A stretch of 64,000 bases of DNA from Prevotellaceae bacterium (lineage in GTDB: Bacteria; Bacteroidota; Bacteroidia; Bacteroidales; Bacteroidaceae), in contig JABZKU010000009.1 of the NCBI GenBank assembly GCA_015257125.1, forward strand, positions 10,473 to 74,472, written 5' to 3'. Position 1 is the first letter of the stretch. Every line of letters begins with the position of its first letter. The position numbers were made by a program, and so were the translations under genes. This document shows positions 8,596 to 30,614 of the stretch, piece after piece. Below the pieces are notes generated by a model. The model was given only the letters and a program-made list of their open reading frames with translations, was not told the origin of the DNA and did no database searches.

Positions 8596-9744
8596 GTTCC
8601 GCGCATGGGCGACACGCCTTTCAGCAATTTGCACTTAGAGAAAAAGCCGCCCCTTGTTCCGCAGTCGAAATTAGACAACGACAGACGAACTGTTGGCCAC
8701 ACAGCATAGAAATAAGCCATTATTGGTTCATCCCACATTTGGAGTGAGGCGTCAACTACCGGAAGCCCTTTCTCGAAAGTGCACCGGCCTCCCACTTCAT
8801 CCCCCCAACGCGCACGCGTAGCGCGCGCGTCCGCTGTTTTTCGTTTTTTGCCTTCACCTCTTCACCATACGACGGTAAGAAGCTCGAAAACAGCGACTTG
8901 CGTGTGAAGACTTCACCCCTTTCTCCTTCACCGGTGAAGGCAAAAAAAGGGCTTTTCCTTCACACACAACGCGCACTGTATCAACAACTTGCGGATAAAG
9001 GTGAAGGGTGAAGGCAAGAATTTCGAACTCCCTGAGTGCGCGATGCGCAGGGGCGTGTCCGTTCGCGCGTACGGAGGTGCGGATGAGGAAAACATGGGTG
9101 ACACCGTGAGCGAAGGGACGGGTGTCTTTTCAAAAAAAGCGGAGAGGAAGCAGAGAAAAGAAGAGGCGTTTCGTAAGAAAGTCCACAAGTTTTTATTCAA
9201 TCTCTCCCTTTTCTCAAAAATCGAAATATTTTTCTCGCAAAATCTTCGACAATTCGAAACTAAATCCTTACTTTTGCGCTTGACAAAACACAACTTCCCT
9301 TCATTCCGCCGCACTGCGGCGTCCATATAGCGCAAAGTCGAGGTACTGTCCCGACCATCCGGCGCAAACGCTCTTTGACCTACTGAACCGGCGCGACTTC
9401 GCCATATCCCTACCTATCTGAACAGGCGAAAAGCGCTACGCTCCGGCGCGGGATGCGTCTTCACGCGACCGCGACGAGCTATAATCGAAGCGCTCCAAAC
9501 CACCATCCACACAAGGTACAAGCCACTATAACACAACGACTTGCACACCCTACCGGACTGCAAGTAAAACCGTTTCCCTATCCACCGAGCACGTCTTGAC
9601 AGACTTCCCCGTTGACCCCAATCGCCGTGAGCGAAGAAGATCATCGGATAGGACTTCGACGCGGAATGATGGCCGCATCACTCCCAATGTCTGATGAACT
9701 TTACATTATACCTCTGCACTTTCATTTCATAATCCCCATACCTC

Positions 9745-13670: not shown

Positions 13671-13795
13671 TAACGAAATGTAGCCATACGAAAGTAGTCG
13701 CATGCGATATGAATCGCCATTGCGGCTCCTTTTGAATGAAGATGAACAGACGCACTTTCAAGGACTATAGCAACAAATTTCAATTTATCAGCAAT

Positions 13796-16700
13796 ATGCA
13801 AAGTACAAGTACCTCTAAGCAGTGGTTCTTCGGACTGTGTTGCACATTGTTGTTGTTATGCGCAAGCGCTCTCCCGTCGGCAGGACAAAACTGTCCGAAC
13901 TTCGGGTGGAACGACTTCACCAAGTCGATTGTGCAGCCCAACTTGGACTGCAACAAGCCGGGCGAGGTGACGATACGCTACAGCAACAACGTCGTCGGCG
14001 TCGACGAGGTGCACTATCAGTTCGGATCCGGAACCAGCGGCCCTTGGTTTCACGAAGTCGATGCCGCCGCGCCGGGATCGACCGTGAAGGCCGAAATCCC
14101 TACATCGATGAGCGGAAAATCGCTCTTTGTGCGCGTGACGACCAAGTGTGGCACCGACACCCGTTCCAATGTGTGGAACATGGGCAACATCATTGCTCAA
14201 AAGACGGAAACCATCACCCTACAAGGCTCGAGCACACCGGCCGGTAGCGGTACGGGGTCGAGTGGTGGTATCACCGTGTGGCTCAATGGCCCCTCGGGAA
14301 TCACAGAGGCCACCTTCAAGCTCTACAAGTGGCACGGCACTGCGGTGCTGGCCAGCCAACGCAGCACGCGCCCGTATGAGGGGGTGACGTTCTTCAATTT
14401 GGAGAAAGGCGACTACGAAGTGAAAGTAGAAGCCAAGCCGGCTTGTACCCCCACCACAACGGCTTCCAACTGGGACACGGATCACTTCAACCTCTCGAAG
14501 GTGATCTACGTCGGCTCATTTAATTTGCAGGTTACTTCTATCCCTGCACGCGGTACCTGTACCGGTGGTGTGAAAGTTGAGCCTTCGAAAGTGACGGGTG
14601 TGCAACAAATGGAGTACGTCCTCACCACACAGGCTGATCGCAACACCCCTATTCAAGCCTTTACGGCCAACTATCCTAATTTTGCCCACACCTTTACGGG
14701 CTTGCCGGCCGGACAATACACCGTGCGTGCGACAGAAAAGACCGGCAACAGCCAAGTGAGTTCGAACTTCAACGTAGGCAACCAAAATGCTTCGCCCGCT
14801 GTCACGGTCAACCACCACACTCTCCGTGGAGTGGCTGAAGGTGAGGTGAATATTCGCCTGGACAACACCACCGAGGCATGTCCGGCCAAACTGACCCTCA
14901 CGCGCGACAACACGACTTCGGGGTTGCCCTTCACCACGATGGTGAAGAACAACATCACCGAAGAAAACACGCTGTTCGAGGGACTTACCGAGGGTAACTA
15001 CACGATCACAGCCGAATATGGAGGTCAATCGTTCTCGGCGAAATTCGGTATCGCTCATTCGACCATGGGCTACTTGTACAACCGCGGCGTAACGCAGGCG
15101 AACAGCATCTGCGACCCTTCGGGTAGTGCCAACTGGTTGTTGTCGGGTGGTTTCTACTACAATCCGCTGGAAGTGAAGATCGTGGATCGCAACACGCAGA
15201 ACCTCGTTCGTAAATTCACACTTCCGGCAGGACAGACGTATTTCGAAACGAAGGGACTCTTCCCCGGCGACTACACGCTCACCGTGGGGTACGAAGCGGC
15301 GAACCAATTTACGACGTCTAATTTCTCGATTGCCCCGAAAGACAACGTACAGGGATACCTGAGTTTCGCGCTGGACGAGCCCACAGAATTTTGCGGCGAC
15401 CAACCGATGGCAAAAATCGCGGTGAACTTCATTGGTGCTGGTGGCATTGAAAACTACCCGGGCACACAAAAGTTCATGAACGGCGCCACTTTCGAAATCT
15501 ATGACGCCGAAGGCAACTTCTTGTACTCGGGCAACATGCCGCAACTGACGGGCAATGCGAAATCGACTATTGAAAGTCCCTTTGCCCCCAACAGAGGCCA
15601 AATCAAGGTGAAGCCGACTTGCGGTTACCCGATTCTCACTTACACGCTCTCCAGCATCAATGGAATGAAGGGAGCTTACCTCTTCAGCCCTGATTTCACC
15701 TATCGTGGCTGCGGAAGCCGCGGAACAAACGTGGATCTTCGCGTGCTGGACACCAAGAACAACGTGGTACCCCTCATTACCTACACGGTGAAGAAGAAAA
15801 CCGGGGAACTCATCGGCACCTACGAAATGAAGGAGGGGGTGAATACCGCCATCTTTGCCAACATGGAACCCGGTGACTACGACGTGGAATGGTATCCGCA
15901 ATGTAAGCCCGACCAGAAGCACCAAGAAACCTTCCGTGTGGAAGACAAGGTGAACGAAACAAGACGTGAAATTAGAGGAGCAGTCTGTGAAGATCAAGGT
16001 TATATTCGCATTGACTTCACCAGTTTCCGCAACATCAACGGCTGGCGCTACGAACTGATTCGAAAGAACGACAATAAACTGATGCGCGTCTATGGTAGTG
16101 TCAACAGCACTGTAGTTTCATTCGAACGCGTACCGGCCGGCGATTATATCGTGAAAGCCATTCCCATTGTGGAGTGTGGTGATATTACGCCCGGTGAATT
16201 TGAAGTCACTGTGCCTGCCATTACCGCCGGATCAGAAATCAGCGACCCTATCTACCTTTGGACTCGCGACGCCGATGCATTGCCTTTCCAATATGTGGGT
16301 AAGGTACGCTACTACACGCGTCTTCCATATAGTTATGTCAAATGGCGTGTGCTGGATGTGTCCACGAATGCCGAAATCAAGAAGGGCGAAGTGCATCCGG
16401 TGGCCAACAACACGGGCACCTTCCCCATCGTCGTAGAGGGATTGCCCCACACTTACAAAATTGAATTTGAGACCCCTTGCGGAACATACACACGCATCGA
16501 CTCGCTCAATTTGGCCAACCGCAAGCAATTGCCGGGCTTTGAACTAACCACCATTGCCGGTAACACCGAGTGCAACACAACGCCTTCGCTCACGGTGAAG
16601 TCGCGCCTGAAAGCGGCCGGGCTTCCCGACAAGGCCTCGAGAATCCAACTCTACAAGTACGTCGATAAGGGAGATGGCTACAAATGGCACTTTGACCAAG

Positions 16701-19700
16701 AGGTGGCGGATGCCAATGCGATCATCGAAACCAAGACCTTTGAGAACTTGGATCCCGGTATTCAATATTATGTGAACTACTTCTACGACGGAACGAGTGA
16801 CCGACAGCAGATTGGTATCCCCGGCAACGCAGGTACCATGTCAGTACCTGTGTATACGTCGAGCTTCAGCCCGAAGGGCACGGCCATCCTCACAGTGAAT
16901 CCCTACGCGGGGACTCCCGGTTCGACAATGGAGGTCGTGGTGACAGACAATCAGCAGAACGAAATCTTCAATAAGACGGTGTCGGCCACCGAAGCAACGA
17001 AGATCGAGGTGAAAAAGCCTGCCACCGGTTTTACGGTCAAGACCAAAGTGCTCAACGGCTGCTTTAAGGACAAGACGTTCACGTCGTACCTTTATCCTAC
17101 GACGACTCCCGTCTTTAGTTTCGACACGCGCACCAACAGGATGCAGTGTAAGAACGACGGTGAGATCACGATGATTTTGCCCGAGGCTTTCCACGATGTG
17201 GATCAAGTGCACTACACGCTGAAGAAAATAACGGGCACGCAATACACCGACGTGGCTGAAACGACGAAGCCAGCTGAACCGAAGACCTTCATCGGTCTGG
17301 AAGCCGGCACCTATGAGATCTCCGCTCGCGCAACAGTCTTCAAAGATGAGACCGGACAACCGAAGGTGATGGACTTCAAACGCAACGTGCAGCTCACGAC
17401 GCCTTATAGGGACGGTCTTTACGCTACGGTACGTCCGGACTACATGGTATCGACGCGAAGCGAATGCGCCCAAGGACGCATCGGTTTGAACATTGAAAAG
17501 GGATCGGGTAGATATCGCGTCTTCTTGAAGAAAACACCCGACGGTGTATTGCCCGAACCGAAGGAACTCTTCACCGATGGTATCTACTCCTCGATGCGCA
17601 ACAAGTTGTGGGGTGAAAACTTCAAGCCCGGTCACTATGCACTGACGGTGACGGATGGCTGTATGGAACGTGACATTCCCGATGCCGAGATTCTCGAAAT
17701 GCCGAACTTGGCCAGCGCTAGCTTCAACCGTTGGTATATGAACGGCGACAAGCGCATGAAGAAAGAACTCGGAGAAAAGGTTGACTCGTTCTTGTATCAA
17801 GTAAAATTCGACCCCTCTGCTTTCCCCGCCAGCTACCAACAGACGGCATACCGCTCTTATGAAGTGCAAGTCGTGGGTAAGGGGCAGGCTCCCGACGACA
17901 CCCAGTGGAAGAGCAACTGGAATACGCCCAACGATGGCCAAGCCATTCTGGACAACTACTCAAAGCGCTTCAATAACTGTGATGGCGTGGACATCTTGCT
18001 TCGCATGAAGAACTGTCCCGAGACCCTGATCCGCGTTCCGACTACGATCGATGTAATCAACATGTTCTACGGTAGTTGGCAATTGCTGAAGTGTAATACG
18101 GTGCAGTGGATTTTCACCGATGGTGAGATTGGCCATAAGTATCATCTGAAAGTCAAGAACACGACGGACAATGTGGTGGTTTACGAAAAAGACATCACCT
18201 ACACCTCACGCGAACAATACCTCACGCGCGATCCGGAGTTGGAATTCCCCTCTGACAAGAGTTATCACTTAGAGATGACACCGTCAGACTATTGTGGTAA
18301 TCCGGTCTATCACTCTCCCTACAACTTTAACCGCGTGGAACGTATTTACAGATACTCTTTGGACGATGGCCTCATCATGTCGGACTGCGATGGTCGCCGC
18401 TTGGCGATCTATGGCTGGACGGATTGTAAACTGCCGATGAAGTACTTCGTTTATGAAGTGACTGCTACCGGAGAGAATCTTGTTGCGCAAAGTGGTAACT
18501 ATGTTCCGGAAAGATGGTACAGCACCTATAAGTTCCTGAAAGATCACCGCTACATCATTCGCGTAGTAGAATACGGACAACCCGAAACGACTAAGATTGA
18601 TCTTGTAGACTTCACGCTCAACTATCGTTTGCCCAGCGGCTACAAAAAGTCTGTTGACTATTTATGGTCTACGCAAACGATGTGTGGCTCGGCTTATGAC
18701 GCTACGAAAAAAGCCTACAACCTGAATGCGCTTCATTGGTTCTTCGGTACGGCGGACTGGACAGGGGTTCCTCCCGTGGAGCAAAAGACCTACGTGACCA
18801 TCCCGAACATGAAGATCGTTGCCACACAAAAAGAGGCACCGCATCGCAAGTTTGTATCCACGAAAGTGAGTCGTTACAATACGACGTATATGAGACACGA
18901 AGCATGGAAGGAAGAACTTGCTGACGGATCACTCATCGACGCGGCTTATGCTCCGGAAGGTAAATACACCGTGGTGGCTCAAACGGATGGCTGCGGCGAG
19001 ATCAACTTGGGAGACGAGTACTTGGGACGCCCGACGATCGATCTCTCGGCTTCGACCGTAACTTCGGCTTGTGATGGTAAGTTTACGGTTACGCCGAAGG
19101 GCACAATCACTTACCATGGTAGCACCGAAGAAGCGGAAATTACTTCGTTCTACGTTCAAGGTGATAACGCCAATACGACTCGCAACTGGGGTCAATCCTT
19201 CGATACTTACCAACGCCTATTCACGCTGGTGGTTAACATGAAGCGCAAGAGCGACGGTAAGACTTGTACGACGACTTGGCCTTTCTCGATGAGCAACTAC
19301 GTGCTCGACTTTGACCAGTCTCAGAGCTTGAGTATGTTCTGCACCGACTCGGGTAAGGGTATCATCCACATGGCTCTGAAGGGTGGTAATGCACCTTATA
19401 CTTACAAGTTGATGTCTCTCGACGGTACGGAAATTGCCCGCAAGACTGTGCCCGGTGCCGTGGACTTCGAACATGGTAAGTTGGGTGAACGCTATCGTAT
19501 CACGGCTACCGATGCCTGCGGATTGACTTGGATTCACCAAGATGTGTTGCTGCAAGACCCTGCTGCAATTTCATCTTCGATGACTATCGAGACATCCTTC
19601 TGTGCCGGTGATCGGGCTAAACTTGCTGCCCGTGAATTTCCTGGTGCAACATACTTATGGCACTTGCCCGATGGTTCGACAAAAGCCGGCCGCGTAATTG

Positions 19701-20431
19701 AGTTCGAAGCCAAAACAGCGAATGCCGGTGAGTTTATCGTTGATATCCATCTGACAACTTGTACGGTAACGCTGTATGGTAAGCACACGGTTGGTATTGC
19801 AAGTATTAAAGAAGCCAGTGGTTTGATCCTCACACAACAAGCTTGCGCGGGTGAACCGGTTGCTTTCAATCTTGATCCTGCAAGCGCAACCATCGACGGT
19901 GAGAAAGCCGATGCGGATGAAATTGAATATCAGTGGGAACGTACTGCTACACCGGACGATGAGTCTACTTGGACTCCGATTCGCAATGCAACGGAACAGA
20001 ACCTGACATACAATGCCGCTGCCCCGGGTGTTTACTATGTTCGCCGTACGGCAAAAATCGGCGACTGTAAGGCGATCAGTGACCAATCAAAGTTGACGGT
20101 TATTGCGGGTATTAATGTCGCTATGACTCCGGATGAGCAGTCAAGAACGATCAATGATAAGAATCCCTTCACGCTCACGGCCGGTATTGTAACGGGTAAT
20201 CCGAATCGCACTTACCAATGGCAACGCAGTGCCGACAAGAAGCATTGGGTGAACATCGGTACAGATGAAACCTTCACCGAAACGAAGCGTTTTGGTAACA
20301 CGGTTTACTACCGTCGAATTGTTTCTGCCGGTGCATGTAGCATCGAAGGTCAACCGATCACGGTTCGTTTCAAGAAGCGTTGGCCGGCTTACATCAACCC
20401 GCAGGTTCGTCAGCGTACGCTCGATGATTAA
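13796..20431 (+). CDS. giant secreted cysteine-patterned repeat protein with SprB-like repeats (2211 aa from ATG 13796)
   Basis: N-terminal signal peptide (KQWFFGLCCTLLLLCASALPSAGQ), then ~20 repeated ~90-100 aa modules. Each module has a conserved Cys and a GG..Y.Y motif (e.g. CTDSGKGIIHMALKGGNAPYTYKL) resembling Pfam SprB repeats. It is a paralog of the minus-strand gene at 22077..28685. No recognisable T9SS type A/B CTD. Confidence 0.8.
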   Translation: MQSTSTSKQWFFGLCCTLLLLCASALPSAGQNCPNFGWNDFTKSIVQPNLDCNKPGEVTIRYSNNVVGVDEVHYQFGSGTSGPWFHEVDAAAPGSTVKAEIPTSMSGKSLFVRVTTKCGTDTRSNVWNMGNIIAQKTETITLQGSSTPAGSGTGSSGGITVWLNGPSGITEATFKLYKWHGTAVLASQRSTRPYEGVTFFNLEKGDYEVKVEAKPACTPTTTASNWDTDHFNLSKVIYVGSFNLQVTSIPARGTCTGGVKVEPSKVTGVQQMEYVLTTQADRNTPIQAFTANYPNFAHTFTGLPAGQYTVRATEKTGNSQVSSNFNVGNQNASPAVTVNHHTLRGVAEGEVNIRLDNTTEACPAKLTLTRDNTTSGLPFTTMVKNNITEENTLFEGLTEGNYTITAEYGGQSFSAKFGIAHSTMGYLYNRGVTQANSICDPSGSANWLLSGGFYYNPLEVKIVDRNTQNLVRKFTLPAGQTYFETKGLFPGDYTLTVGYEAANQFTTSNFSIAPKDNVQGYLSFALDEPTEFCGDQPMAKIAVNFIGAGGIENYPGTQKFMNGATFEIYDAEGNFLYSGNMPQLTGNAKSTIESPFAPNRGQIKVKPTCGYPILTYTLSSINGMKGAYLFSPDFTYRGCGSRGTNVDLRVLDTKNNVVPLITYTVKKKTGELIGTYEMKEGVNTAIFANMEPGDYDVEWYPQCKPDQKHQETFRVEDKVNETRREIRGAVCEDQGYIRIDFTSFRNINGWRYELIRKNDNKLMRVYGSVNSTVVSFERVPAGDYIVKAIPIVECGDITPGEFEVTVPAITAGSEISDPIYLWTRDADALPFQYVGKVRYYTRLPYSYVKWRVLDVSTNAEIKKGEVHPVANNTGTFPIVVEGLPHTYKIEFETPCGTYTRIDSLNLANRKQLPGFELTTIAGNTECNTTPSLTVKSRLKAAGLPDKASRIQLYKYVDKGDGYKWHFDQEVADANAIIETKTFENLDPGIQYYVNYFYDGTSDRQQIGIPGNAGTMSVPVYTSSFSPKGTAILTVNPYAGTPGSTMEVVVTDNQQNEIFNKTVSATEATKIEVKKPATGFTVKTKVLNGCFKDKTFTSYLYPTTTPVFSFDTRTNRMQCKNDGEITMILPEAFHDVDQVHYTLKKITGTQYTDVAETTKPAEPKTFIGLEAGTYEISARATVFKDETGQPKVMDFKRNVQLTTPYRDGLYATVRPDYMVSTRSECAQGRIGLNIEKGSGRYRVFLKKTPDGVLPEPKELFTDGIYSSMRNKLWGENFKPGHYALTVTDGCMERDIPDAEILEMPNLASASFNRWYMNGDKRMKKELGEKVDSFLYQVKFDPSAFPASYQQTAYRSYEVQVVGKGQAPDDTQWKSNWNTPNDGQAILDNYSKRFNNCDGVDILLRMKNCPETLIRVPTTIDVINMFYGSWQLLKCNTVQWIFTDGEIGHKYHLKVKNTTDNVVVYEKDITYTSREQYLTRDPELEFPSDKSYHLEMTPSDYCGNPVYHSPYNFNRVERIYRYSLDDGLIMSDCDGRRLAIYGWTDCKLPMKYFVYEVTATGENLVAQSGNYVPERWYSTYKFLKDHRYIIRVVEYGQPETTKIDLVDFTLNYRLPSGYKKSVDYLWSTQTMCGSAYDATKKAYNLNALHWFFGTADWTGVPPVEQKTYVTIPNMKIVATQKEAPHRKFVSTKVSRYNTTYMRHEAWKEELADGSLIDAAYAPEGKYTVVAQTDGCGEINLGDEYLGRPTIDLSASTVTSACDGKFTVTPKGTITYHGSTEEAEITSFYVQGDNANTTRNWGQSFDTYQRLFTLVVNMKRKSDGKTCTTTWPFSMSNYVLDFDQSQSLSMFCTDSGKGIIHMALKGGNAPYTYKLMSLDGTEIARKTVPGAVDFEHGKLGERYRITATDACGLTWIHQDVLLQDPAAISSSMTIETSFCAGDRAKLAAREFPGATYLWHLPDGSTKAGRVIEFEAKTANAGEFIVDIHLTTCTVTLYGKHTVGIASIKEASGLILTQQACAGEPVAFNLDPASATIDGEKADADEIEYQWERTATPDDESTWTPIRNATEQNLTYNAAAPGVYYVRRTAKIGDCKAISDQSKLTVIAGINVAMTPDEQSRTINDKNPFTLTAGIVTGNPNRTYQWQRSADKKHWVNIGTDETFTETKRFGNTVYYRRIVSAGACSIEGQPITVRFKKRWPAYINPQVRQRTLDD

Positions 20432-20571
20432 ACCTTGATTTTCTTCAGAGCAGAAATTACTAGTATTAGATTCTGCTTTGCTGAAAAGGACAAAATAATT
20501 GGCGTCCGTATCAAACGAAAGTTTTGATACGGACGCCTTTGTTTTGTCTATGGATATAGCAGTTCGAAAAA
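19276..20571. repeat. left arm of a ~1.3-kb near-identical inverted repeat (3' end of giant gene 1 plus 3'UTR)
   Basis: The reverse complement matches 21937..23232 almost base for base. About 330 nt were compared by eye with 1 mismatch, and the encoded C-terminal ~385 aa differ at 4 positions. Confidence 0.8.
20501..20546 (+). terminator. intrinsic terminator of giant gene 1
   Basis: ggcgtccgtatcaaa-cgaaagt-tttgatacggacgcc is a perfect 15-bp stem followed by tttgttttg. It is part of the duplicated arm. Confidence 0.65.
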
Positions 20572-20678
20572 GGGTGATACTGTCCCCAAACGTGTGTAAG
20601 CTCGATACTGTCCTATAAAAGTGTGTAAGCTCCAAAGTTCTTATATTTGTGGTGAAATCAAAAATCAAATCAAGAACA

Positions 20679-21329
20679 ATGAAGCTTACAATGGAACAAA
20701 GATCGGAAATAATTTCCGAACCGGCCTCTAGTGAGGCAGGTTTTAATGAGTTGATGCGCGTACTTTTGGATAGTTTTTCCAAGCAGGAACGTGCCCTCTT
20801 CTTAGAGGAACATAAAGGTGAACAAGGCAACGGTTTCCGTCCTCGTCGTTGGCGTGGTCACGGTTGCAGCTTTCAACTTCGCATTCCTCGCACTCGCTCG
20901 GGTACTTTTCAACCGATCATACTCGGCATCTTGGCTGCTCAGGAAAGCGAGCGTGCGCTGCTTTTTCATGAGTTGTATGCGCGTGGACTTTCCTGTGAAG
21001 ACATCGCCGAGGTGGGTCGCCGCATCTACGGTCATCATTACAGCAAACAGCAGATGAGCCGGCTCTCCGGGGCTTGTTATGAGGAGATCCAAGAGTGGCT
21101 TGCGTGCCGACTTACTTCTCATTATTTGGCCGTCTACATCGATGCCACGTTCTGCAGCACGCGTCGTGACGGGAGCGTCTCGAAGGAGGCCTACTACACG
21201 ATGTTGGGACTGCTGCCCGACGGGAGTCGTGAGGTGCTCACGGTGGTTAATCACCCAAAGAAGGGGCAATTGCATGGGAAATGGAGCTCGAAGCGCTCAA
21301 GGAACGCGGCGTGGAACAAATCGATTTGA
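20679..21329 (+). CDS. IS256-family transposase, N-terminal part (orfA; frame 0, contains first catalytic D)
   Basis: ...LAVYIDATFCSTRRDG...LTVVNHPKKG, then the frame closes at 21329. The start is set at the MKLTMEQ ATG; the ORF track begins at 20649. Confidence 0.7.
   Translation: MKLTMEQRSEIISEPASSEAGFNELMRVLLDSFSKQERALFLEEHKGEQGNGFRPRRWRGHGCSFQLRIPRTRSGTFQPIILGILAAQESERALLFHELYARGLSCEDIAEVGRRIYGHHYSKQQMSRLSGACYEEIQEWLACRLTSHYLAVYIDATFCSTRRDGSVSKEAYYTMLGLLPDGSREVLTVVNHPKKGQLHGKWSSKRSRNAAWNKSI
21254..21260 (+). other. C_CCA_AAG slippery heptamer: candidate programmed -1 ribosomal frameshift site (or 1-bp deletion in an A-run)
   Basis: In the orfA frame the codons are cac CCA AAG aag. Shifting -1 gives CCC AAA gaa ggg gca ..., which translates PKEGAIAWEMELEALKERGV and continues the IS256 transposase (orfB frame). 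This matches the X_XXY_YYZ rule. Confidence 0.45.
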
Positions 21330-21829
21330 TTGTCTCCGATGCGTTGAGCGGTATCGAAAATGCGGTGTGTTCGGCTTTTCCCACGGCGCTGCACCAACTC
21401 TGCGTCGTGCATTTCAAACGGAAGGTGTTGAACACCGTTTCCACCAAAGACAAAGCCGAGGTCGGTGAGGAGCTCAAAGCGCTCTTTCCCGTGGAGCATA
21501 CCGACATTATGCCTCTTGCGGCCTATGAGAATTTGCGTACCTTCGCTCGGCGTTGGGGCAAGAAATACCCGAGCCTTGCCCGATTGGACAGAGAACGCAA
21601 TGCGGCCTATTTCACTTATCTAAGGTTTCCCGAAAGTGCACGCCGAATGATTTACTCGACCAACTGGGTGGAACGTCTCAATCGCTGCTACAAGCGCACT
21701 TTACTCATGCGTGGAGCGATGCCTTCTCCCGCTTCCGTGGTTTATCTTTTGGGCTCTGTTGCCAAGGAGAAAACGGAAGGGACGTATGCAAGACGGCTAC
21801 CGTATTTTCGGGAATGGATAATCAAGTAA
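21257..21829 (+). CDS. IS256-family transposase, C-terminal part (orfB; -1 frame; second D and E of DDE)
   Basis: ...IDLIVSDALSG... and ...YSTNWVERLNRCYKRTL carry the second D and the E of the IS256 DDE triad. The track lists it as 21281..21829, and the open -1 frame begins just after a TAA at 21249-21251. Confidence 0.7.
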   Translation, partial: KEGAIAWEMELEALKERGVEQIDLIVSDALSGIENAVCSAFPTALHQLCVVHFKRKVLNTVSTKDKAEVGEELKALFPVEHTDIMPLAAYENLRTFARRWGKKYPSLARLDRERNAAYFTYLRFPESARRMIYSTNWVERLNRCYKRTLLMRGAMPSPASVVYLLGSVAKEKTEGTYARRLPYFREWIIK

Positions 21830-21859
21830 AACGACAAATAAAAATCAACATCACAAATT

Positions 21860-21893
21860 CCCCTCCGGCTTGGGGTACCCCAAGCCGGAGGGG
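21860..21893. repeat. perfect 34-bp palindrome inside the IS, 30 nt after the transposase stop
   Basis: cccctccggcttggg-GTAC-cccaagccggagggg. It could act as a terminator or as a transposase/host-factor site. Confidence 0.5.
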
Positions 21894-21936
21894 AAGGACG
21901 AAGGAGTATCTTACACACTTTTTCGGACATTACCCT

Positions 21937-23232
21937 TTTTTCGAACTGCTATATCCATAGACAAAACAAAGGCGTCCGTATCAAAACTTTCGTTTGATAC
22001 GGACGCCAATTATTTTGTCCTTTTCAGCAAAGCAGAATCTAATACTAGTAATTTCTGCTCTGAAGAAAATCAAGGTTTAATCATCGAGCGTACGCTGACG
22101 AACCTGCGGGTTGATGTAAGCCGGCCAACGCTTCTTGAAACGAACCGTGATCGGTTGACCTTCGATGCTACATGCACCGGCAGAAACAATTCGACGGTAG
22201 TAAACCGTGTTACCAAAACGCTTCGTTTCGGTGAAGGTTTCATCTGTACCGATGTTCACCCAATGCTTCTTGTCGGCACTGCGTTGCCATTGGTAAGTGC
22301 GATTCGGATTACCCGTTACAATACCGGCCGTGAGCGTGAAGGGATTCTTATCATTGATCGTTCTTGACTGCTCATCCGGAGTCATAGCGACATTAATACC
22401 CGCAATAACCGTCAACTTTGATTGGTCACTGATCGCCTTACAGTCGCCGATTTTTGCCGTACGGCGAACATAGTAAACACCCGGGGCAGCGGCATTGTAT
22501 GTCAGGTTCTGTTCCGTTGCATTGCGAATCGGAGTCCAAGTAGACTCATCGTCCGGTGTAGCAGTACGTTCCCACTGATATTCAATTTCATCCGCATCGG
22601 CTTTCTCACCGTCGATGGTTGCGCTTGCAGGATCAAGATTGAAAGCAACCGGTTCACCCGCGCAAGCTTGTTGTGTGAGGATCAAACCACTGGCTTCCTT
22701 AATACTTGCAATACCAACAGTATGTTTACCATACAGCGTTACCGTACAAGTTGTCAGATGAATATCAACGATAAACTCACCGGCATTCTCTGTTTTGGCT
22801 TCGAACTCGATTTCGCGGCCGGCTTTTGTAGAACCATCGGGCAAGTGCCATAAGTAAGTTGCACCAGGGAATTCGCGCGCTGCAAGTTTAGCCCGATCAC
22901 CGGCACAGAAGGAGGTCTCGACAGTCATCGAAGATGAAATTGCATCAGGGTCTTGCAGCAACACATCTTGGTGAATCCAAGTCAATCCGCAGGCATCGGT
23001 AGCCGTGATACGATAGCGTTCACCCAACTTACCATGTTCGAAGTCCACGGCACCGGGCACAGTCTTGCGGGCAATTTCCGTACCGTCGAGAGACATCAAC
23101 TTGTAAGTATAAGGTGCATTACCACCCTTCAGAGCCATGTGGATGATACCCTTACCCGAGTCGGTGCAGAACATACTCAAGCTCTGAGACTGGTCAAAGT
23201 CGAGCACGTAGTTGCTCATCGAGAAAGGCCAG
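21937..23232. repeat. right arm of the ~1.3-kb inverted repeat (3' end of giant gene 2 plus 3'UTR)
   Basis: Mirror image of 19276..20571; the stop codons map onto each other (20429 <-> 22079). Confidence 0.8.
21961..22007 (-). terminator. intrinsic terminator of giant gene 2 (mirror copy)
   Basis: Same 15-bp stem as at 20501, with a T-tract on the minus strand (acaaaacaaa on the top strand). Confidence 0.65.
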
Positions 23233-26200
23233 GTCATCGTACATGTCTTACCGTCGCTCTTGCGCTTGATGTTCAAAACCAAGGTAAACTCACGCTGATA
23301 AGTACCGAAAGACTGTCCCCAGTTGCGAGTTGTGTTATAGCTGTCACCCTGAACATAGAAAGATGTAATTTCCACGTCTTCCGTACTTCCAAGATAAGTC
23401 AGCGTACCCTTAGGTGTTACCGTAAACTTACCGTCACAAGCGGCATCTACCGTCGTGGCGCTGAGGTCGAGAATCGGGCGACCGATGTAGTCGTCTTCCA
23501 TCGGAATGTCACCACAATCGGTGTGCGCCACCACAGTGTATTCGCCTTCCGGAGCGTAGGCATCGATCAATGTACCATCAGGCAACTCTTCCTTCCACGA
23601 ATAGCGGTACATAGTAGTTGAGTAGCGCGTTACGCTTGTTGCAACGAACTTACGTGTAGGATTAGCTTTCGGACGAGCTACGATCGTCATCTTCGGAATC
23701 GTCAAATAGGTCTTCTGCTCCACTGCAGGAACTCCATCCCAACTTGGATAGAAGTAGCTCGAGAAATTATTCATGTAGTAACCATTCTTGGAAGCGGTGT
23801 AGCCATTACCACAGAAGGTTTGGCCTTTGAACGTATAATCTCTCGACACCGTGTACTTTGAAGGTAAACGATAGTTGAGCGTGAAGTCAACGAGTAGATC
23901 CTTTGTGGTTTCGGGTTGACCGTATTCCACCACGCGAATGACATACTTCTTGTCCTTCTTGAACTTGTAAGGGCTGTACCATACTTCAGGAACATAGTTA
24001 CCACTCTCGCTTACGAGTGTTTCCTGCGTACCATTTACCTCATAAGCGTAGTACTTGAGAGGCAGCCTACAGTCTGTCCAACCCCGGATGGCCAAAAGAC
24101 GACCATCGCAATCCGACATAATACTTTGACCATAGTCAAGTGAGTACTGATAGTTACGATTGATCGCATTGAAATATCTCGTTGTTCCATAAATCGGGTC
24201 ACCACAATAATCTGTCGGCGTCATGTCGATGCGATAACTCTTATTTGCGGGAAACTCGAGATCAGGATCACGAGTGAGGTATTGTTCACGAGAAGTATAG
24301 TTTACTTCTTTGTCCACTAGTACAACATTATCCGTTGTACGAGTAACCTTTATCTTGTACTTGTGACCAATTTCACCATCGGTGAATACCCACTGTACCG
24401 TATTACACTTTAGTTGTTGCCAAAAACCACTAAAAGCATAACGAATATCTCGATTATCGGTAATACGCGTCAGCGTGGCCGGACAGTTCTTCAAACGAAG
24501 AAGGACGTCTACCCCATTACAATTATCGAAACGTTTCGAATAATCGCTAATATAGGATTTACCATCGTTACTGTCGCCCCAGCTGCTCTTCCACTGACTA
24601 TCATCAGGGGCAGCCCCTTTCGCTACTACTTGAATTTCGTAGGCGCGATAGGCTGTCTGGCGGAAACCTTCAGGGAAGTCCGAGGGGTCGAATCTTAAGT
24701 AGTAATTGACAGAATCTCGAGTTTCGTCTTTTTTGTTTCTCAGACGAGAATCCAAGCGCAGCTCCCACCAGGCCCAAGTAATCTTGGGTGTGTTGGGCAT
24801 TTCGAGAATCTCTGCATCTGGGATATCACGTTCCATACAGCCATCCGATACGGTCAGCGCGTAATGGCCGGGCTTCAATCCGCTACCCCAAAGCTTATTA
24901 TAATAATTTGTTCCGATCGGGTCAGTGAAAATTTCACGAGGCTTAGTCAAAACACCTTCGTCAGGGGTCTTCGTCAAGAAGACGCGATACTTACCGGAGC
25001 CCTTTTCGATGTTCAAACCGATGCGACCGTTGGGACATTCGTCTCTGGTCGGCACCATATAATCCGGGCGCACCGTGGCATAGAGACCATCTCGATAAGG
25101 TGTGCTCAACGTTATGGTCTGTTCAAAGTCTTGCACCTGAGGTTGGCCATTTTCGTCTTTGAAGACAGTGGCACGACCGGTCACCTTGTACGTACCGGCT
25201 TCCAGACCGATGAAGGTCTTCGGTTCACCGGGCTTCGTGGTTTCGGCCACGTCGGTATATTGCGAACCGGTGGTCTTCGTCAGCGTATAGTGGATTTGAT
25301 CCACGTCGTGGAAGGACTCCGGCACCACCATGGTGATTTCACCGTCGTTCTTACACTTCATGTTGTTTTTACGAAGCGAGAAGCTAAACTTCGTACCTTG
25401 GCGCGGTGTATTCCACGTGCTGGCAGATTTACCGGCCATACAGCCGTCTACCATCGTTGCTTCGGCAGTAAAAGAACCATACGGTTTACGCACATCGAAG
25501 TTATAAGGTGCATCGGCGGGAACTTCGCCATTGAAGAGTTCGGTGCCGTCCGTGCTCTTGATAACCAAACGCATCTTTGTACCCGGTTCGGCCGGATTGA
25601 TGCGAGCCGTAAGCGTAGAAACACCCTTCAAGCTGAAGTCCGTAGAATTCAATTGAAGGCTCAAATTTGATGTTTCTCCAATATTGATGCCTTGGAAATA
25701 ATCACTCGTTCCGTTGTAGTAATAACGAATGGCATAGGAACCGGACTCCAATTCGGTGAAAGTGTGGCTTTCGATGATAGAAGTCGGATTGGTTTCTTCC
25801 TTCAAAGGACGATAGGCAGCGTTTCCGTCGACCACCGTGTATTTGTACAGGACGATCTTCGTAGCCTTTTCGGGCAGCCCGGCTGACTTCAACTTAGAGA
25901 GCACCGTAATATACCCCTTCTTATTGCAAGTTGTGTTCACGCTACCCAGGAAGTAGCTAAAACCGGGCATGTTCTTGCGGTTATCCAAATAGAGAGAATC
26001 CAAACGGGTATATTTACCGCAAGGAGTTTCAAACTCAATGTTGTAAGTGTGCGGCAATTTATCTACAACAAAGCCGAAACCACCTGTCTGTGTTTTTGAG
26101 GGACGTGCTTCCCCCTTGTTGAGTTCAGCTCCGGTCACCACATCCAGCACACGCCATTTTATATTATCCAGCGGATAGACAGAATAGTAACGTGCCTTAC

Positions 26201-28685
26201 CATCATTCTGATAGGGTGTGGGGTTCTGGTCGCGAGTCCAAAGATAGATGTAGTTTTCTTGCGGTTTTTCTTTGGGCACGGTGACCTCAAATGAACCGGG
26301 GGTAATCTCTCCACACGTTACGATAGGAGTAGACTTCACAATATAATTACCGGCAGGAACGCGGCTGAAATAAACACTGCTTGTCTGTCCGGAACCGTAG
26401 ACGCGCACCACATTACCTGTGGCCTTGTCTACCAATTCGTGGCGCCAAGCATTGATGTTGGTAAAGTTGTAAAAACTGATGGATATAGCGCCCTCTTCAC
26501 CACAACGAGCAGGAGTTACATTGCGGTTCAATTCTTTAACCGTATCTTCAACGCGGAACTCATCGGTGTGTTTCTGCGTGGGGGCACATTGCGGCCACCA
26601 CTCCACTTTATAATCACCGGGCTGCATGTTGGCGAAGATTGCTGTATTCACACCCTCCTTCATCACATACTCACCTACCAAAGCACCGGTAGCCTTGTCG
26701 GTTACCTTGTAAGTCATGAGCGGAGCCACTTGCCCTTTCATATCGAGGACACGCAAATCCACGTCGGTTCCCGTACCACCGCAACCTCGGAAGGTAAAGT
26801 TCGGGCTAAACTTGTAGCCGGAGTTACCATACATCGTGTAGTCCTGGTAGGGATAACCACAAGCTGACTTCACACGAAGTCTATAATAAGGCTCTGCAAC
26901 CGGCGTTTCGATGTAACTTGCCGCGTTACCGGTCAACGCAGGCATTGCACCGGAATACTGGAAAACACCTTGCTGATTATAGATTTCAAATGTTGCCCCA
27001 TTGAGGAACGAAGAAAGCATGGGGGCATTCTCGACACCTCCGGTTCCCGTGTACTTCACGGGAATGCGCATCATCGGCTTTTCGCCGCAGAAATCGGTGC
27101 TAACCGCCGTGCTGTTAAAGTCAAACGAGAGATTCCCTTCGAGAGAATTCTTCAGACCGATATCGAAGTCTAATTTCGTCTCCAATCCGGAGCTCTCATG
27201 ACGTGCCGTGACCGTGTACTCTCCCGGGAAGAGGCCTTTGACTTCCACCGTTCTTTCACCGGCGGGTTGAGTCCATTCTTTCACCAAAGCACCACCATCA
27301 CGATAGGTGACACGCATCTTCAGCGGGGCATAATAAATGCCATTGTAGAGATACCAAACTTGTCCACCGGAGGCCTCACACAATCTATTGGCAGGCGTAA
27401 TTGAGCTATACGAAAAATAGCCGAGAGTACCTTCACTGATCTGGAAGTTGCTCGTCTTCGTGATGCCACCGTATTCGGCTTTCACCTGATAATTTCCCTT
27501 CGGGAGATTTTCGATAAGGGTGACTTCTTCGGTCACATTCGTCTTCACGACGGGCGTGAAGGCCACCCCATCCGTGCGCGTAATGGTCAGCTTGGCGGGG
27601 CAAGCCTCAGTAGTGTTTGGCAATTGGATATTGACCGCTCCTTCGTTTACGCCGGGCAGTGTTCCGTGCTGAACGTTGGCATAGACATCATTCTCTTGAT
27701 TGTAAATGTTGAAGTAGTTGGTCATCGAGCTGTTGCCCGTCTTTTCCGTCGCCTTTAAGACATAGTTACCGGCTTGCACTCCCGTGAAAGTGTGGGAAAA
27801 GTTCGGGTAGGTGGCCGTAAACGTCTGAACCGGTGTATCAGGCGTACTTTGATTGGCAATGGTGTACTCAATGTTCTGCACACCCGTCACTTTCGACACC
27901 TCGACTTTGACACCACCCGGGCAAGTACCGCGGGCAGGAATCTGCGTGGTCACCAAATTGAAGGAACCCACCGAGATGCCGGAAGACAGATTAAAGTGGT
28001 CCGTATCCCAATTGGAGGGCGGATTGGCCGGGGTACAAGAAGGCTTGGCTTCCGCCTTCACCACATAGTCGCCCTTGGGCAAATTGAAGAACGTCACGCC
28101 ATCATAGGGACGCGTGGAACGCTGAGATTGAATGACCGTGTTCTGGTCATCGAATTTGTAGAGCTTAAAGGTGGCTTCCGTAAAACCGGTGGGACCGACC
28201 AAGGAGGCTTGCACACCACCACTTGCACCCGTACCACTACCGGCGGGTGTACTGCTCACACTCAGTCTAATATCCTGAGCCTTTTGCGATGAGACACCCG
28301 ACATGTTCCACCAGTCTGTGCGTGTATTCGTACCGCATGTGGTCGTGATACGCACATAAAGTGTCTTGCCGTTCATGCTTGCCGGAATGTCCGCTTTGAC
28401 GGTCGCACCCGGTGCCGGCGCATCGACCGTTTCAAACCAAGGGCCGTTCGGTCCGGAACCGAATTGATACTTCACTTCGTCCACTCCGACGATGTTGTTG
28501 CTGTAGCGTATGGAAACGGTTCCCGGCGTATTACAGTCCGAGTTGGGCTGCATTTGCGACTTCGTAAAATCGTTCCATTGGAAATTCGGGCAATTCTGCC
28601 CCACTGCGGGGAGACTACCCAAACAGAGCAACAATGTACAGAGGAGCCCGAAGATGCTTGATCTTAGGGGAATTGTTTTCTCCAT
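22077..28685 (-). CDS. giant secreted cysteine-patterned repeat protein with SprB-like repeats (2202 aa), paralog of 13796..20431
   Basis: Signal peptide MEKTIPLRSSIFGLLCTLLLCLGSLPAVGQ, with N-terminal ~100 aa about 75% identical to giant 1. Internal blocks range from ~50% to ~85% identity, and the C-terminal ~385 aa are near identical. Confidence 0.8.
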   Translation of the reverse strand: MEKTIPLRSSIFGLLCTLLLCLGSLPAVGQNCPNFQWNDFTKSQMQPNSDCNTPGTVSIRYSNNIVGVDEVKYQFGSGPNGPWFETVDAPAPGATVKADIPASMNGKTLYVRITTTCGTNTRTDWWNMSGVSSQKAQDIRLSVSSTPAGSGTGASGGVQASLVGPTGFTEATFKLYKFDDQNTVIQSQRSTRPYDGVTFFNLPKGDYVVKAEAKPSCTPANPPSNWDTDHFNLSSGISVGSFNLVTTQIPARGTCPGGVKVEVSKVTGVQNIEYTIANQSTPDTPVQTFTATYPNFSHTFTGVQAGNYVLKATEKTGNSSMTNYFNIYNQENDVYANVQHGTLPGVNEGAVNIQLPNTTEACPAKLTITRTDGVAFTPVVKTNVTEEVTLIENLPKGNYQVKAEYGGITKTSNFQISEGTLGYFSYSSITPANRLCEASGGQVWYLYNGIYYAPLKMRVTYRDGGALVKEWTQPAGERTVEVKGLFPGEYTVTARHESSGLETKLDFDIGLKNSLEGNLSFDFNSTAVSTDFCGEKPMMRIPVKYTGTGGVENAPMLSSFLNGATFEIYNQQGVFQYSGAMPALTGNAASYIETPVAEPYYRLRVKSACGYPYQDYTMYGNSGYKFSPNFTFRGCGGTGTDVDLRVLDMKGQVAPLMTYKVTDKATGALVGEYVMKEGVNTAIFANMQPGDYKVEWWPQCAPTQKHTDEFRVEDTVKELNRNVTPARCGEEGAISISFYNFTNINAWRHELVDKATGNVVRVYGSGQTSSVYFSRVPAGNYIVKSTPIVTCGEITPGSFEVTVPKEKPQENYIYLWTRDQNPTPYQNDGKARYYSVYPLDNIKWRVLDVVTGAELNKGEARPSKTQTGGFGFVVDKLPHTYNIEFETPCGKYTRLDSLYLDNRKNMPGFSYFLGSVNTTCNKKGYITVLSKLKSAGLPEKATKIVLYKYTVVDGNAAYRPLKEETNPTSIIESHTFTELESGSYAIRYYYNGTSDYFQGINIGETSNLSLQLNSTDFSLKGVSTLTARINPAEPGTKMRLVIKSTDGTELFNGEVPADAPYNFDVRKPYGSFTAEATMVDGCMAGKSASTWNTPRQGTKFSFSLRKNNMKCKNDGEITMVVPESFHDVDQIHYTLTKTTGSQYTDVAETTKPGEPKTFIGLEAGTYKVTGRATVFKDENGQPQVQDFEQTITLSTPYRDGLYATVRPDYMVPTRDECPNGRIGLNIEKGSGKYRVFLTKTPDEGVLTKPREIFTDPIGTNYYNKLWGSGLKPGHYALTVSDGCMERDIPDAEILEMPNTPKITWAWWELRLDSRLRNKKDETRDSVNYYLRFDPSDFPEGFRQTAYRAYEIQVVAKGAAPDDSQWKSSWGDSNDGKSYISDYSKRFDNCNGVDVLLRLKNCPATLTRITDNRDIRYAFSGFWQQLKCNTVQWVFTDGEIGHKYKIKVTRTTDNVVLVDKEVNYTSREQYLTRDPDLEFPANKSYRIDMTPTDYCGDPIYGTTRYFNAINRNYQYSLDYGQSIMSDCDGRLLAIRGWTDCRLPLKYYAYEVNGTQETLVSESGNYVPEVWYSPYKFKKDKKYVIRVVEYGQPETTKDLLVDFTLNYRLPSKYTVSRDYTFKGQTFCGNGYTASKNGYYMNNFSSYFYPSWDGVPAVEQKTYLTIPKMTIVARPKANPTRKFVATSVTRYSTTMYRYSWKEELPDGTLIDAYAPEGEYTVVAHTDCGDIPMEDDYIGRPILDLSATTVDAACDGKFTVTPKGTLTYLGSTEDVEITSFYVQGDSYNTTRNWGQSFGTYQREFTLVLNIKRKSDGKTCTMTWPFSMSNYVLDFDQSQSLSMFCTDSGKGIIHMALKGGNAPYTYKLMSLDGTEIARKTVPGAVDFEHGKLGERYRITATDACGLTWIHQDVLLQDPDAISSSMTVETSFCAGDRAKLAAREFPGATYLWHLPDGSTKAGREIEFEAKTENAGEFIVDIHLTTCTVTLYGKHTVGIASIKEASGLILTQQACAGEPVAFNLDPASATIDGEKADADEIEYQWERTATPDDESTWTPIRNATEQNLTYNAAAPGVYYVRRTAKIGDCKAISDQSKLTVIAGINVAMTPDEQSRTINDKNPFTLTAGIVTGNPNRTYQWQRSADKKHWVNIGTDETFTETKRFGNTVYYRRIVSAGACSIEGQPITVRFKKRWPAYINPQVRQRTLDD

Positions 28686-29773
28686 CTTAGTTAATCATTT
28701 ATTGTATCTGTGTAATGAATTGAATTATAGAATTTCTATTGTTCACGATCCATGCAAGTGCTCATTTGCGCAAGCGCTCATACGGATTGAGATTTTCCCA
28801 TCGTTTACTTCATCGACAAACGTCGCACTCGAATTCAAATTATCGCGCGCGACCACTGTCATAAGATTACATTCCAAGGACAAATATACGCGATGTGAAG
28901 GAGAAGACGCAGTTTTTGAGGGTAAAATGCGTCCCGAACCTCAAAAACACCTTGTTTTGACACACACAGTCATCAAAATCGGCGGTTTTCGTGAAAACAA
29001 AGCAGTCGTTTGCCTTGAATTGGAATCATCGTCCCGTTCAGGAATGCAACTTTATTGACTGAAAACGAAAGTCGACTCAAAAATCAGGAACAAACAGGCT
29101 ACATGATTAGGGACGTGGCTTGCCCATCTTCTCAACTCCTCCTCATCGTTTTGCACCGTCCTCTTAGATTTCTTCTTTCTTCACACCTTTCTCCTTTTCA
29201 TTTTCCCCATCATCCATGAGTTTTTTGGGTAGACGCATACACGAGTAAAGAGGGCATTGGAAATCCATCTCTGAAAAAGCACCTCAACCTTCAACACAAA
29301 AATCAGCTGATTACAAACGAATTAACAGGACACGCTTCACATAGAGATTAGAGAGTGGCCAAGTTCTTTCTCCTCTCCACTTTGTTTGCCCTCGGTAGCG
29401 GTAGAGCTTCCCACACAAGGGTGTGCGAATCCTTTCTTTTTTACTTAAAAGACAGCGGCACGCTCGAGGTATTTTCTTGCGCCGAGGCGAAAAACAACTT
29501 GCCCGTACGCACATGCGCAACGCGCATTTCACTCCCCTTTTTCGACATGGCCTCACCTCAGTTCGGCCGGTCTTGGCTAACGGCTATTTTATCTTTGCAC
29601 GCGTTGAAAATCGGGGCTATTCTCATCGCGTTGCCTGCATCGCGATGATGCTTTCCTTACATGAACTCTCGGCATTGAGTCAACATGAGTGCAAACAGCG
29701 GGTAAGGACAAACACAACGCACAGCAGCATAAGATGAATTCCCTTCGGTGTCATCACAAACCCGGCAATAGAC

Positions 29774-29841
29774 GAAGAAAAGTCCACCGGTTTCGCGAAA
29801 AAACGCCCAGTTTTTGAAGCAAAGTCCACTGTTTTTTCGCG
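29774..29841. repeat. three-unit array of the AAAAGTCCAC repeat upstream of giant gene 2
   Basis: Units gaagaaaagtccaccggtttcgcg, aaaaaacgcccagtttttgaagc and aaagtccactgttttttcgcg. The period is about 22 bp. Confidence 0.7.
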
Positions 29842-30014
29842 ATGCCTTGTGGGCGGCGCATCCGAAACGATGAGTCGCCCTTTCAACTGCGGCGGTTTGC
29901 GGTTCATTCAGCGCATGGAGCGTAAATTTTCCGCACAAAAAAGCCCGCAGTTTATGTGAACTGCGGGCTATTATTTCGTCTATTTTATGGGGATCGCACG
30001 GCGGCTGCGCGCAT

Positions 30015-30614
30015 TCAGTCCTTGATCAGGCCCTCTTGTCGCAAGAGATCGGCGAGGGTTTCGAGTTCGGCATACCATGCTTCGCCGAAACGGCGGATGA
30101 GGGGCTCGCGTAGAAAACGATAGATGGGCAATCGGAGTTCGCGACCTTTGGCTACAGCCGGCGCACAGACCGACCAGCGGTGGTAGTTGAGCGCCACTGT
30201 GCCGTTGGAGAGGGGTTGCTCGCGAATGGGGTAAAGCGCGCAACTGATGGGCTTGGGCCAGTCGATGCGTCCCTCGCGAAACGCACAATCGGTGGCGCAG
30301 AGACAAAGACCGTCGTCGTCATAGCGCGCAAAACAGCATTCTCTTCCGCCGACGATGCTGGTAACGAGGTCGCCGTCGCGGTCGCGATAGGCCACTCCCT
30401 GCTTGTCGAGCACTTTGCGGGCGCGGGGACTGAGCTGCATGCGCACTGCCGGTAGCACACGCTCAAGTTCGCGACACTCCTCGGCCGTGACGGGGGCACC
30501 GGCTTCGCCTTCGACGCAGCAGGCTCCGCCACAGGCGGCGAGATCGCAACAAAAATGTTCGGTGAAAATATCGGGCGACAAGAGCACGTCGCCTACTTGG
30601 AGGATGGGGAGCAT
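30015..30614 (-). CDS. DUF3109 family Cys-rich protein
   Basis: MLPILQVGDVLLSPDIFTEHFCCDLAACGGACCVEGEAGAP... has the characteristic CC..C..CC cluster. 199 aa. Confidence 0.6.
   Translation of the reverse strand: MLPILQVGDVLLSPDIFTEHFCCDLAACGGACCVEGEAGAPVTAEECRELERVLPAVRMQLSPRARKVLDKQGVAYRDRDGDLVTSIVGGRECCFARYDDDGLCLCATDCAFREGRIDWPKPISCALYPIREQPLSNGTVALNYHRWSVCAPAVAKGRELRLPIYRFLREPLIRRFGEAWYAELETLADLLRQEGLIKD

Follow-up and report, generated by a model that had tools for sequence, protein, structure and literature searches.

We analyzed a 64,000-nt stretch of DNA (hereafter the window) from a Prevotellaceae bacterium (assembly GCA_015257125.1, contig JABZKU010000009.1, positions 10,473 to 74,472 of the forward strand), in which two giant convergent genes, here called A and B, face each other across an insertion sequence (IS) and end in inverted copies of one another. 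Gene A (13736..20431, + strand) encodes a 2231-aa protein with a signal peptide and Ig-like, prealbumin-like, PKD, and SprB-type repeats; gene B (22077..28685, − strand) encodes a 2202-aa protein that also carries a signal peptide. The IS between them (20576-21934, + strand) belongs to the IS256 family (PF00872, NF033543) and lacks a target-site duplication. It measures 1359 bp, which corrects the 1365 bp given in a preliminary description of this DNA.

An inverted-repeat search of the window returned a single long pair of inverted sequences, 19008-20574 / 21934-23500, whose arms are 1359 nt apart. The partner of base i is base 42508-i, and high identity begins right after 19276/23232 and reaches the IS. 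The left arm (19277-20575, + strand) consists of the last 1155 coding nt of gene A and 144 nt of 3′ untranslated region (UTR). The right arm (21935-23231, − strand), which is the left arm inverted, holds 142 nt of 3′ UTR and the last 1155 coding nt of gene B. These lengths agree with the roughly 1.16 kb of gene end and 140 bp of 3′ UTR described previously. Each arm also carries the 15-bp-stem hairpin reported there: that of A lies at 20501-20537 (+ strand) and its inverted copy, that of B, at 21971-22007 (− strand), and because the stem has a T-rich tail on both strands it resembles a terminator in either direction.

The arm-to-arm alignment contains 19 mismatches over 1299 nt, or about 98.5-98.7% identity, and is a mosaic. 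An outer perfect block of 286 nt (19277-19562, partner 22946-23231) has no mismatches. It is followed by a 248-nt divergent patch (19563-19810, partner 22698-22945) with 17 differences (93% identity; 13 synonymous and 4 non-synonymous) and then by an inner perfect block of 738-761 nt (19811-20571, partner 21937-22697) that ends no more than 5 nt from the IS. As predicted from the letters alone, the encoded tails differ at exactly four residues: A1943D, I1951V, V1987E, and A1995E. Beside the IS, the left arm has a run of A5 and the right arm A6, a one-base difference. A 1.3-kb inverted repeat at such identity cannot be explained by chance. The palindrome lies where it was first placed, but "near-perfect" overstates arms that are 98.5% identical and include a 93% patch.

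The outer boundary of the arms is abrupt. Identity is 78% over the 77 nt that precede 19276/19277 and 100% directly after it, and an alignment of the whole gene units shows 50-77% identity between A and B over most of their length and essentially 100% in the arms. The gradual decay of identity that had been proposed upstream of this point is therefore not observed; the boundary is sharp and falls at the same point in all strains. At the inner boundary, the sequences flanking the IS are inverted (AAAAAGGG / CCCTTTTT), and the window junctions bear out the earlier observation that they do not form a direct target-site duplication. The inner end of the left arm (ATATAGCAGTTCGAAAAAGGGT, 20554-20575, + strand; partner 21935-21954) resembles the terminal repeat of an IS256-like miniature inverted-repeat transposable element (MITE). 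The similarity is marginal (p about 0.005-0.02 before multiple testing), so a possible origin of this end as the remnant of an earlier element is suggestive only.

As the window comes from a short-read metagenome assembly, the palindrome could in principle be an assembly artifact, with a single gene tail placed twice during assembly or two pieces joined chimerically at the IS. Some observations fit such an error: metagenome-assembled genome (MAG) contigs of the same species end within the arms (L012 at 19331, L013 at 23071), and the window differs from a second assembly, the ENA metagenome contig ERZ2610424 NODE_46 (L001), which encodes the exact protein of gene A, only at 19462 and 23046, a pair of partner positions in the palindrome. 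At these two positions one assembly reads G/C in both arms and the other A/T in both arms. This difference is probably an arm-to-arm single-nucleotide polymorphism (SNP) that the two short-read assemblies collapsed in opposite directions, and the "perfect" blocks of the window may be slightly overstated as a result.

Long reads, however, make an artifact extremely improbable. The 659-kb contig BNJS01002760 (L019) is collinear with the window through A, arm, IS, arm, and B, with both genes resolved and the IS between them; the BNJS, BNJT, and BNJU records were assembled with metaFlye from PromethION reads that average 13 kb and come from human saliva (BioProject PRJDB9452; PMC7782811). Besides this contig, at least five assemblies repeat the gene-IS-gene layout (L003-L006, L017, and L021), among which L021, L003, and L004 agree with the window although they derive from other samples and assemblers, and strain-specific differences within the arms tell A from B. 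The palindrome is real, is not a collapsed or chimeric product, and belongs to an uncultured oral Prevotellaceae species present in several human hosts. One further contig from the saliva sample of L019 (L016, BNJS01003456, 976-7857) runs from an A-like arm into the left end of the IS, of which it has 26 nt, and then into over 6 kb of unrelated, AT-rich DNA; its far end matches window positions 9171-9265 (86%). This contig is either a structural variant or a chimera.

Comparison across strains indicates how the arms are kept alike. All strains share one outer boundary, with A and B about 71% identical upstream of it and 93-100% identical inside, and within the arms the sequences do not cluster as A-specific or B-specific. 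The identity and the position of perfect tracts, in contrast, vary by strain. The arms of L021 are 99.1% identical with a perfect tract of 1169 nt, every difference lying in the UTR, those of a second strain (strain 2, L003-L006) are 97.5% identical with a perfect tract of 584 nt, those of the long-read contig L019 are 97.6% identical with perfect tracts of at most 222 nt, and those of L015 are 94% identical.

Haplotypes also move between the genes. A five-SNP haplotype at 19318-19375 is found on B in strain 2 and L013 and on A in L019. In the outer perfect block of the window (19277-19562), B has been converted to A-type sequence, and the final 20 nt of the left arm have, by comparison with strain 2, taken on the right-arm sequence through conversion that comes within 9 nt of the IS. 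Between 19563 and 19783 the A gene of strain 2 resembles the B gene of the window and vice versa. This swap of patch haplotypes would fit reciprocal exchange, and mis-phasing across the 286-nt perfect block of the window could mimic it. Because the perfect tracts differ in place by strain and haplotypes are shared between A and B, we read the exchange as recurrent, with the caveat that short-read phasing and bubble collapse affect part of this evidence. Since the identity extends to synonymous sites and the UTR, selection at the protein level is not the explanation. Homologous exchange between the inverted paralogous tails thus appears well supported, in keeping with the original suggestion of ongoing recombination between the inverted repeats within a conversion tract. 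The related suggestion of homogenized C-terminal modules also holds, as only the tails are 94-99% identical in genes that otherwise match at 59% at the protein level.

Conversion of the tails does not depend on the present arrangement. The A and B genes of UBA1746 lie on different contigs and still share 95% identity across the segment homologous to 19277-19562. From this alignment, tail conversion is evidently a property of the gene family for which neither the IS nor the palindrome is required.

The central element retains the hallmarks of its family. It has imperfect terminal repeats of about 25 bp of the IS256 type with a subterminal TGTAA(G) motif, as described for the family (PMC7780238). 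The right repeat lies at 21910-21934 (− strand; reverse complement GGTAATGTCCGAAAAAGTGTGTAAG). The left end is doubled: the extra left terminal repeat, which we call IRL1 (GATACTGTCCCCAAACGTGTGTAAGCTC, 20576-20603, + strand), is allelic to the left repeat (IRL) of L015 and L017, and the second, IRL2 (GATACTGTCCTATAAAAGTGTGTAAGCTC, 20604-20632, + strand), is the one used in L019, L016, and L020. GATACTGTCCCCAAACGTGTGTAAG of IRL1 matches GGTAATGTCCGAAAAAGTGTGTAAG at 20/25 positions, and because the terminal repeats align in register we place the IS at 20576-21934. Inside the right end, a GC-rich hairpin with a 17-bp stem (21858-21895, − strand) would act like a terminator on transcription entering from the B side; the same hairpin is conserved in other copies of the IS.

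The transposase is split into an N-terminal fragment (20649..21329, + strand; NF033543 profile positions 13-167) and a C-terminal fragment in the −1 frame (21281..21829, + strand; profile positions 175-336). These score 99.5 and 131.3 bits on PF00872, compared with 251.8 bits for the intact copy in L019. The lesion, at 21254-21260 (+ strand), is a 1-nt deletion together with a C>A change that turns CACCCCACAGAA into CACCCAAAGAA and reads CCCAAAG. The copies in L014, L017, L019, and L021 read through CACCCCACAGAA, with a single open reading frame (ORF) of 403 aa in L019 and 420 aa in L014. The window's copy is therefore a decaying IS256-family member whose transposase is dead here. We considered a programmed −1 frameshift and rejected it, as the intact relatives read CACCCCACAGAA within a single ORF, which marks the change as a 1-nt deletion and not a feature of the family. 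We note that the deletion and the C>A change happen to produce C CCA AAG, a classic −1 slippery heptamer, and that a −1 slip at CCCAAAG would restore a full-length transposase (NHPK|EGAIAW compared with NHPTEGAIAW in intact copies). The heptamer may thus allow residual transposase expression.

Compared with strain 2, the left 400 nt of the IS (20584-20981) contain 18 differences (4.5%) and the remaining approximately 950 nt (20982-21934) are identical, a pattern that marks the IS itself, on this comparison, as a recombinant mosaic. In its general features the element resembles IS256 and ISCth4 (PMC7780238): a Mutator-type DDE transposase, a length of about 1.36 kb, imperfect repeats of about 25 bp, relatives with one ORF of 403-420 aa, and an associated MITE with a 9-bp target duplication. 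The window copy departs from them in having no target duplication, where 8-9 bp in direct orientation is typical of the family, a doubled left end, and a transposase broken by a 1-nt deletion. The missing duplication appears to indicate rearrangement after insertion and not that the element falls outside the family.

Across assemblies, we found at least six distinct junction types within about 45 nt after the shared terminator, at two loci and in both IS orientations. Read outward from the terminator, the IS begins after ...GCAGTTCGAAAAAGGGT in the window, strain 2, and L021. In L019 it begins after GGATATAGC on the left side and after TTGTCT on the right. In L015 it begins after GGATAT on the B side and after 45 unique nt on the other, and in L020 it is preceded by 37 unique nt. 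L017 and L018 have a MITE-repeat relic after GGATATA. A direct target duplication was sought at every junction type examined, and none was found. The IS of L015 itself contains a MITE of about 372 nt (L015 2323-2694) with a 9-bp target duplication and IS256-like terminal repeats (TATTGCTGTCCG[C/G]TAAA...), and solo ends of that MITE lie as relics beside the giant-gene terminator elsewhere (L017 13676-13720, L018 1676-1700, and L014 1308-1327 / 1462-1483). At a separate B locus (L020, L022), an IS copy or fragment adjoins the same terminator in either orientation. The approximately 45 nt past the terminator thus form what we regard as a well-supported candidate hotspot for IS256-like elements and their MITEs, and the tandem IRL1 and IRL2, together with the mosaic IS, point to successive occupancy and recombination between IS copies.

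We also tried to explain the window by clean insertion at the exact center of a perfect palindrome, where excision of GATAC...GGACATT would leave AAAAAGGGT|ACCCTTTTT. This candidate was rejected because the in-register repeats assign GGT/ACC to the IS, and it is further ruled out by the very different, asymmetric junctions of other strains. An A-B pair free of the IS, which would represent the empty site, was absent from both the genome scan and the metagenome scan.

The junctions bear directly on whether the IS built the palindrome. In such a scheme, the terminal repeats of the IS would pair after a break, by fold-back or synthesis-dependent strand annealing, one flank would be copied in inverted orientation to the other side, and the product would be completed by annealing in the paralogous gene. 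Arms of the window type do reach directly to the IS ends, where the flanks are inverted and a duplication is missing, and strain-specific inner ends recur on both sides (GCAGTTCGAAAAAGGG in the window; the MITE-repeat relic after GGATATA on the A arm in L017 and on the B arm in L018). A fold-back model has been proposed for an inverted repeat with a 1.4-kb center in Lactobacillus delbrueckii ssp. bulgaricus (PMC5345009). Against this, the arms stop at unequal distances from the IS, differing by 11 nt in L019 and, in L015, by a unique insert of 45 nt. L017 and L018 are different genomes, of which L018 has no A arm; the UBA1746 paralogs have been converted on different contigs, outside this palindrome; and the outer boundary is one common ancient point. 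We therefore consider construction of the palindrome by the IS unlikely.

The genes are far older than their tails. A and B are 59% identical in amino acid sequence over the first 1800 residues, gene A is nearer to its positional counterpart in UBA1746 (L008, 66%), and gene B is nearer to those of L009 and L011 (62-65%). Because A and B each have separate orthologs in other species, the duplication predates these species: A and B are ancient paralogs in which only the tails are young. The preliminary description had invoked palindrome formation, which as a duplication event is not supported in light of this ancestry. The 3′ UTRs of the orthologs in other species yielded no alignment. The family is small, with 26 clusters found and none named. 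Profile searches returned weak prealbumin-like SpaA domain matches in both proteins, and the tail encoded by the arms has matches to PKD, Ig_7, and, below threshold, SprB domains; a PDB sequence search with this tail gave nothing informative.

The chromosomal position of the genes varies. Between malate dehydrogenase and DUF3109, one Prevotellaceae MAG carries an A ortholog alone in the A orientation (L008, 4919-12647) and another a B-like gene alone in the B orientation (L010, 4886-12516), and in L009, L020, and L022 the B gene is at a different locus. The malate dehydrogenase-DUF3109 locus apparently holds A, B, or both, by species. The B-type genes of L020 (BNJS01001744, 5100-12350) and L022 (BNJU01003024, 4687-13013) share 87-92% identity with the B gene of the window and lie at another locus, adjoining helicase-like genes; the upstream flank in L020 matches the UBA1746 B contig at 95.5% identity. 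These observations suggest that the B-type gene or its neighborhood may move between genomes or loci. In the window, the 1.3 kb upstream of B (28686-30014) contains no convincing gene, and about 850 nt of it are missing from the B-only species L010.

These layouts raise the possibility that the pair was assembled by recombination between two IS copies, one after the terminator of A and one after that of a distant B, which joined the tails around a single hybrid IS, with conversion following later. The IS found just past the terminator of B in either orientation in close relatives (L020, L022) is in line with such an origin, as are the A gene alone at malate dehydrogenase-DUF3109 in UBA1746 with B elsewhere and the mosaic, duplication-free IS of the window. 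Yet in the more distant species L010 the malate dehydrogenase-DUF3109 locus is occupied by a B-like gene in the B orientation, suggesting that B is old there, and a search for IS remnants upstream of B, where the second joint would be expected (28998-30060), found none. We regard juxtaposition by this route as distinctly unlikely.

The most provocative proposal in the preliminary description was that recombination between the arms flips the IS and that the IS acts as a switch. In 7/8 assemblies the IS has one orientation, with IRL next to A or the right terminal repeat (IRR) next to B. The exception is L015, a long-read contig (BNJT01002915.1, 41 kb) from a different person, in which IRL is next to the B arm and the IS is thus flipped relative to B. 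The opposite orientation therefore does occur, as that description had anticipated, but it is not clean evidence of an arm-mediated flip: the L015 junctions are unlike all others, and its inner-arm haplotypes resemble the B arm of L019 and not the A arm, meaning that they have not flipped with the IS.

For a programmed inversion switch, arm recombination would have to turn the IS so that an outward promoter acts on either giant gene. Beyond the L015 orientation, one could cite the swapped patch alleles between strains and the promoter halves known at the ends of IS256-family elements (PMC7780238). However, the IS lies 3′ of both genes, so an outward transcript would be antisense and would meet the 15-bp-stem hairpin with its bidirectional T-rich tails. 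The segment between the arms consists of the IS only, with a frameshifted transposase and no alternative coding segments, and the tails are nearly identical, so that a flip would alter the proteins by a few SNPs at most. No promoter was accepted in this segment, in a search that did not formally scan for Bacteroidota-type promoters, and a sigma-70 scan of the IS ends found no more than in shuffled sequences, using a model unsuited to Bacteroidota. No integrase or invertase gene is among those within 10 kb, which encode RecJ, RecQ, a Gate-domain protein, a Ribonuc_L-PSP family protein, glutamate dehydrogenase, malate dehydrogenase, and DUF3109; an Rfam search of the whole window returned tRNA-Glu only. 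Independent insertion explains the flipped copy equally well, given that both orientations occur beside the same terminator at another locus. A regulatory role for the inversion is unlikely, and a programmed switch in particular very much so.

Taken together, we consider it probable that the locus reflects recurrent exchange between the inverted tails of old paralogs, combined with a terminator-proximal IS hotspot in which the IS serves as a passive spacer. Under this explanation, recurrent homologous exchange would hold the arms (the last 1155 coding nt, the 3′ UTR, and the terminator) at 94-99% identity, mostly through non-reciprocal gene conversion and occasionally through reciprocal exchange. 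Tracts would be limited on the outside by the fixed point at which paralog identity falls to about 71-78% and on the inside by the end of homology at the IS. The inverted flanks and the missing target duplication would be secondary effects, with IS-IS recombination between successive or independent insertions, plus conversion running to the IS end, having erased the duplications. Two studies in E. coli describe perfect and interrupted palindromes as attacked by SbcCD (PMC4245961, PMC3315005), and by that account a kilobase-sized spacer would be expected to make the repeat tolerable; the IS would then be a passive 1.36-kb spacer between the arms. What the data show directly is the anatomy, the paralogy, the mosaicism across strains, the sharing of haplotypes, the diversity of junctions, and the decay of the IS; from these patterns we infer which recombination pathway acted, in what order events took place, and that the IS acts as a spacer.

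Several observations weigh against this explanation. The perfect blocks of short-read assemblies may partly reflect bubble collapse, and the phase of the window's patch across the 286-nt perfect block is open to mis-assignment. The near-symmetric junction of window-type strains is incompletely explained by two independent insertions. As every A-B pair found in the genome and metagenome scans contains the IS, an active role of the element in creating or stabilizing the pair is possible. Finally, relatives with A alone, with B alone in the opposite orientation, or with B elsewhere complicate the origin of the juxtaposition. A bolder version, which we put forward speculatively and judge rather unlikely, would make the terminator-proximal stretch a structure-directed IS256 landing site whose kilobase spacer enables both tolerance and continued homogenization of a 1.3-kb inverted repeat of two functional genes, or would have the IS repeats prime fold-back rebuilding of the arms, so that the IS is integral to a self-maintaining palindrome. 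If true, the hotspot or spacer idea would connect the targeting of IS elements with the ability of bacteria to tolerate palindromes.

With recurrent exchange as its basis, the locus is an ordinary product of recombination and neither a new kind of switch nor evidence of a new mechanism. Its interest lies in offering a clean natural case, seen in several human hosts, of two giant surface-protein genes whose 3′ modules evolve in concert; an IS-occupied center, a terminator-proximal hotspot, and inverted paralogs combine here into a kilobase-scale palindrome. Such loci also break short-read MAG contigs and risk being over-homogenized by assemblers.

Among known systems, the tufA and tufB genes of Salmonella are inverted paralogs homogenized by RecA-dependent conversion, with occasional inversion. 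The tuf copies are far apart and fully homogenized, whereas the genes described here are adjacent and convergent and share only their tails. The G segment of phage Mu and the R64 shufflon likewise place inverted repeats at gene 3′ ends around a flippable segment, and there a site-specific recombinase acts on short sites to swap different C-termini. In the present locus there is no recombinase gene, the homologous arms are long, and the tails are nearly identical, so that a flip changes nothing.

Closer in architecture are the palindromes of mammalian sex chromosomes, which share inverted arms bearing gene copies, a unique spacer, abrupt boundaries, and arms kept highly identical by intrachromosomal conversion (PMC8981503, PMC3403216). 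Those structures span tens of kilobases to megabases compared with 1.3 kb here; our locus resides in a bacterium, which has no meiosis, its arms contain only the 3′ fifth of the genes, and its spacer is a transposable element. The chromosomal inverted repeat at the replication terminus of L. delbrueckii ssp. bulgaricus, for which fold-back synthesis and IS involvement have been discussed, is also bacterial, has a unique center of about 1.4 kb, and is found across strains (PMC5345009). Its arms, however, are 23-kb duplications of a whole region including dif, whereas those of the window are conversion tracts between old paralogs, and here the center is demonstrably an IS.

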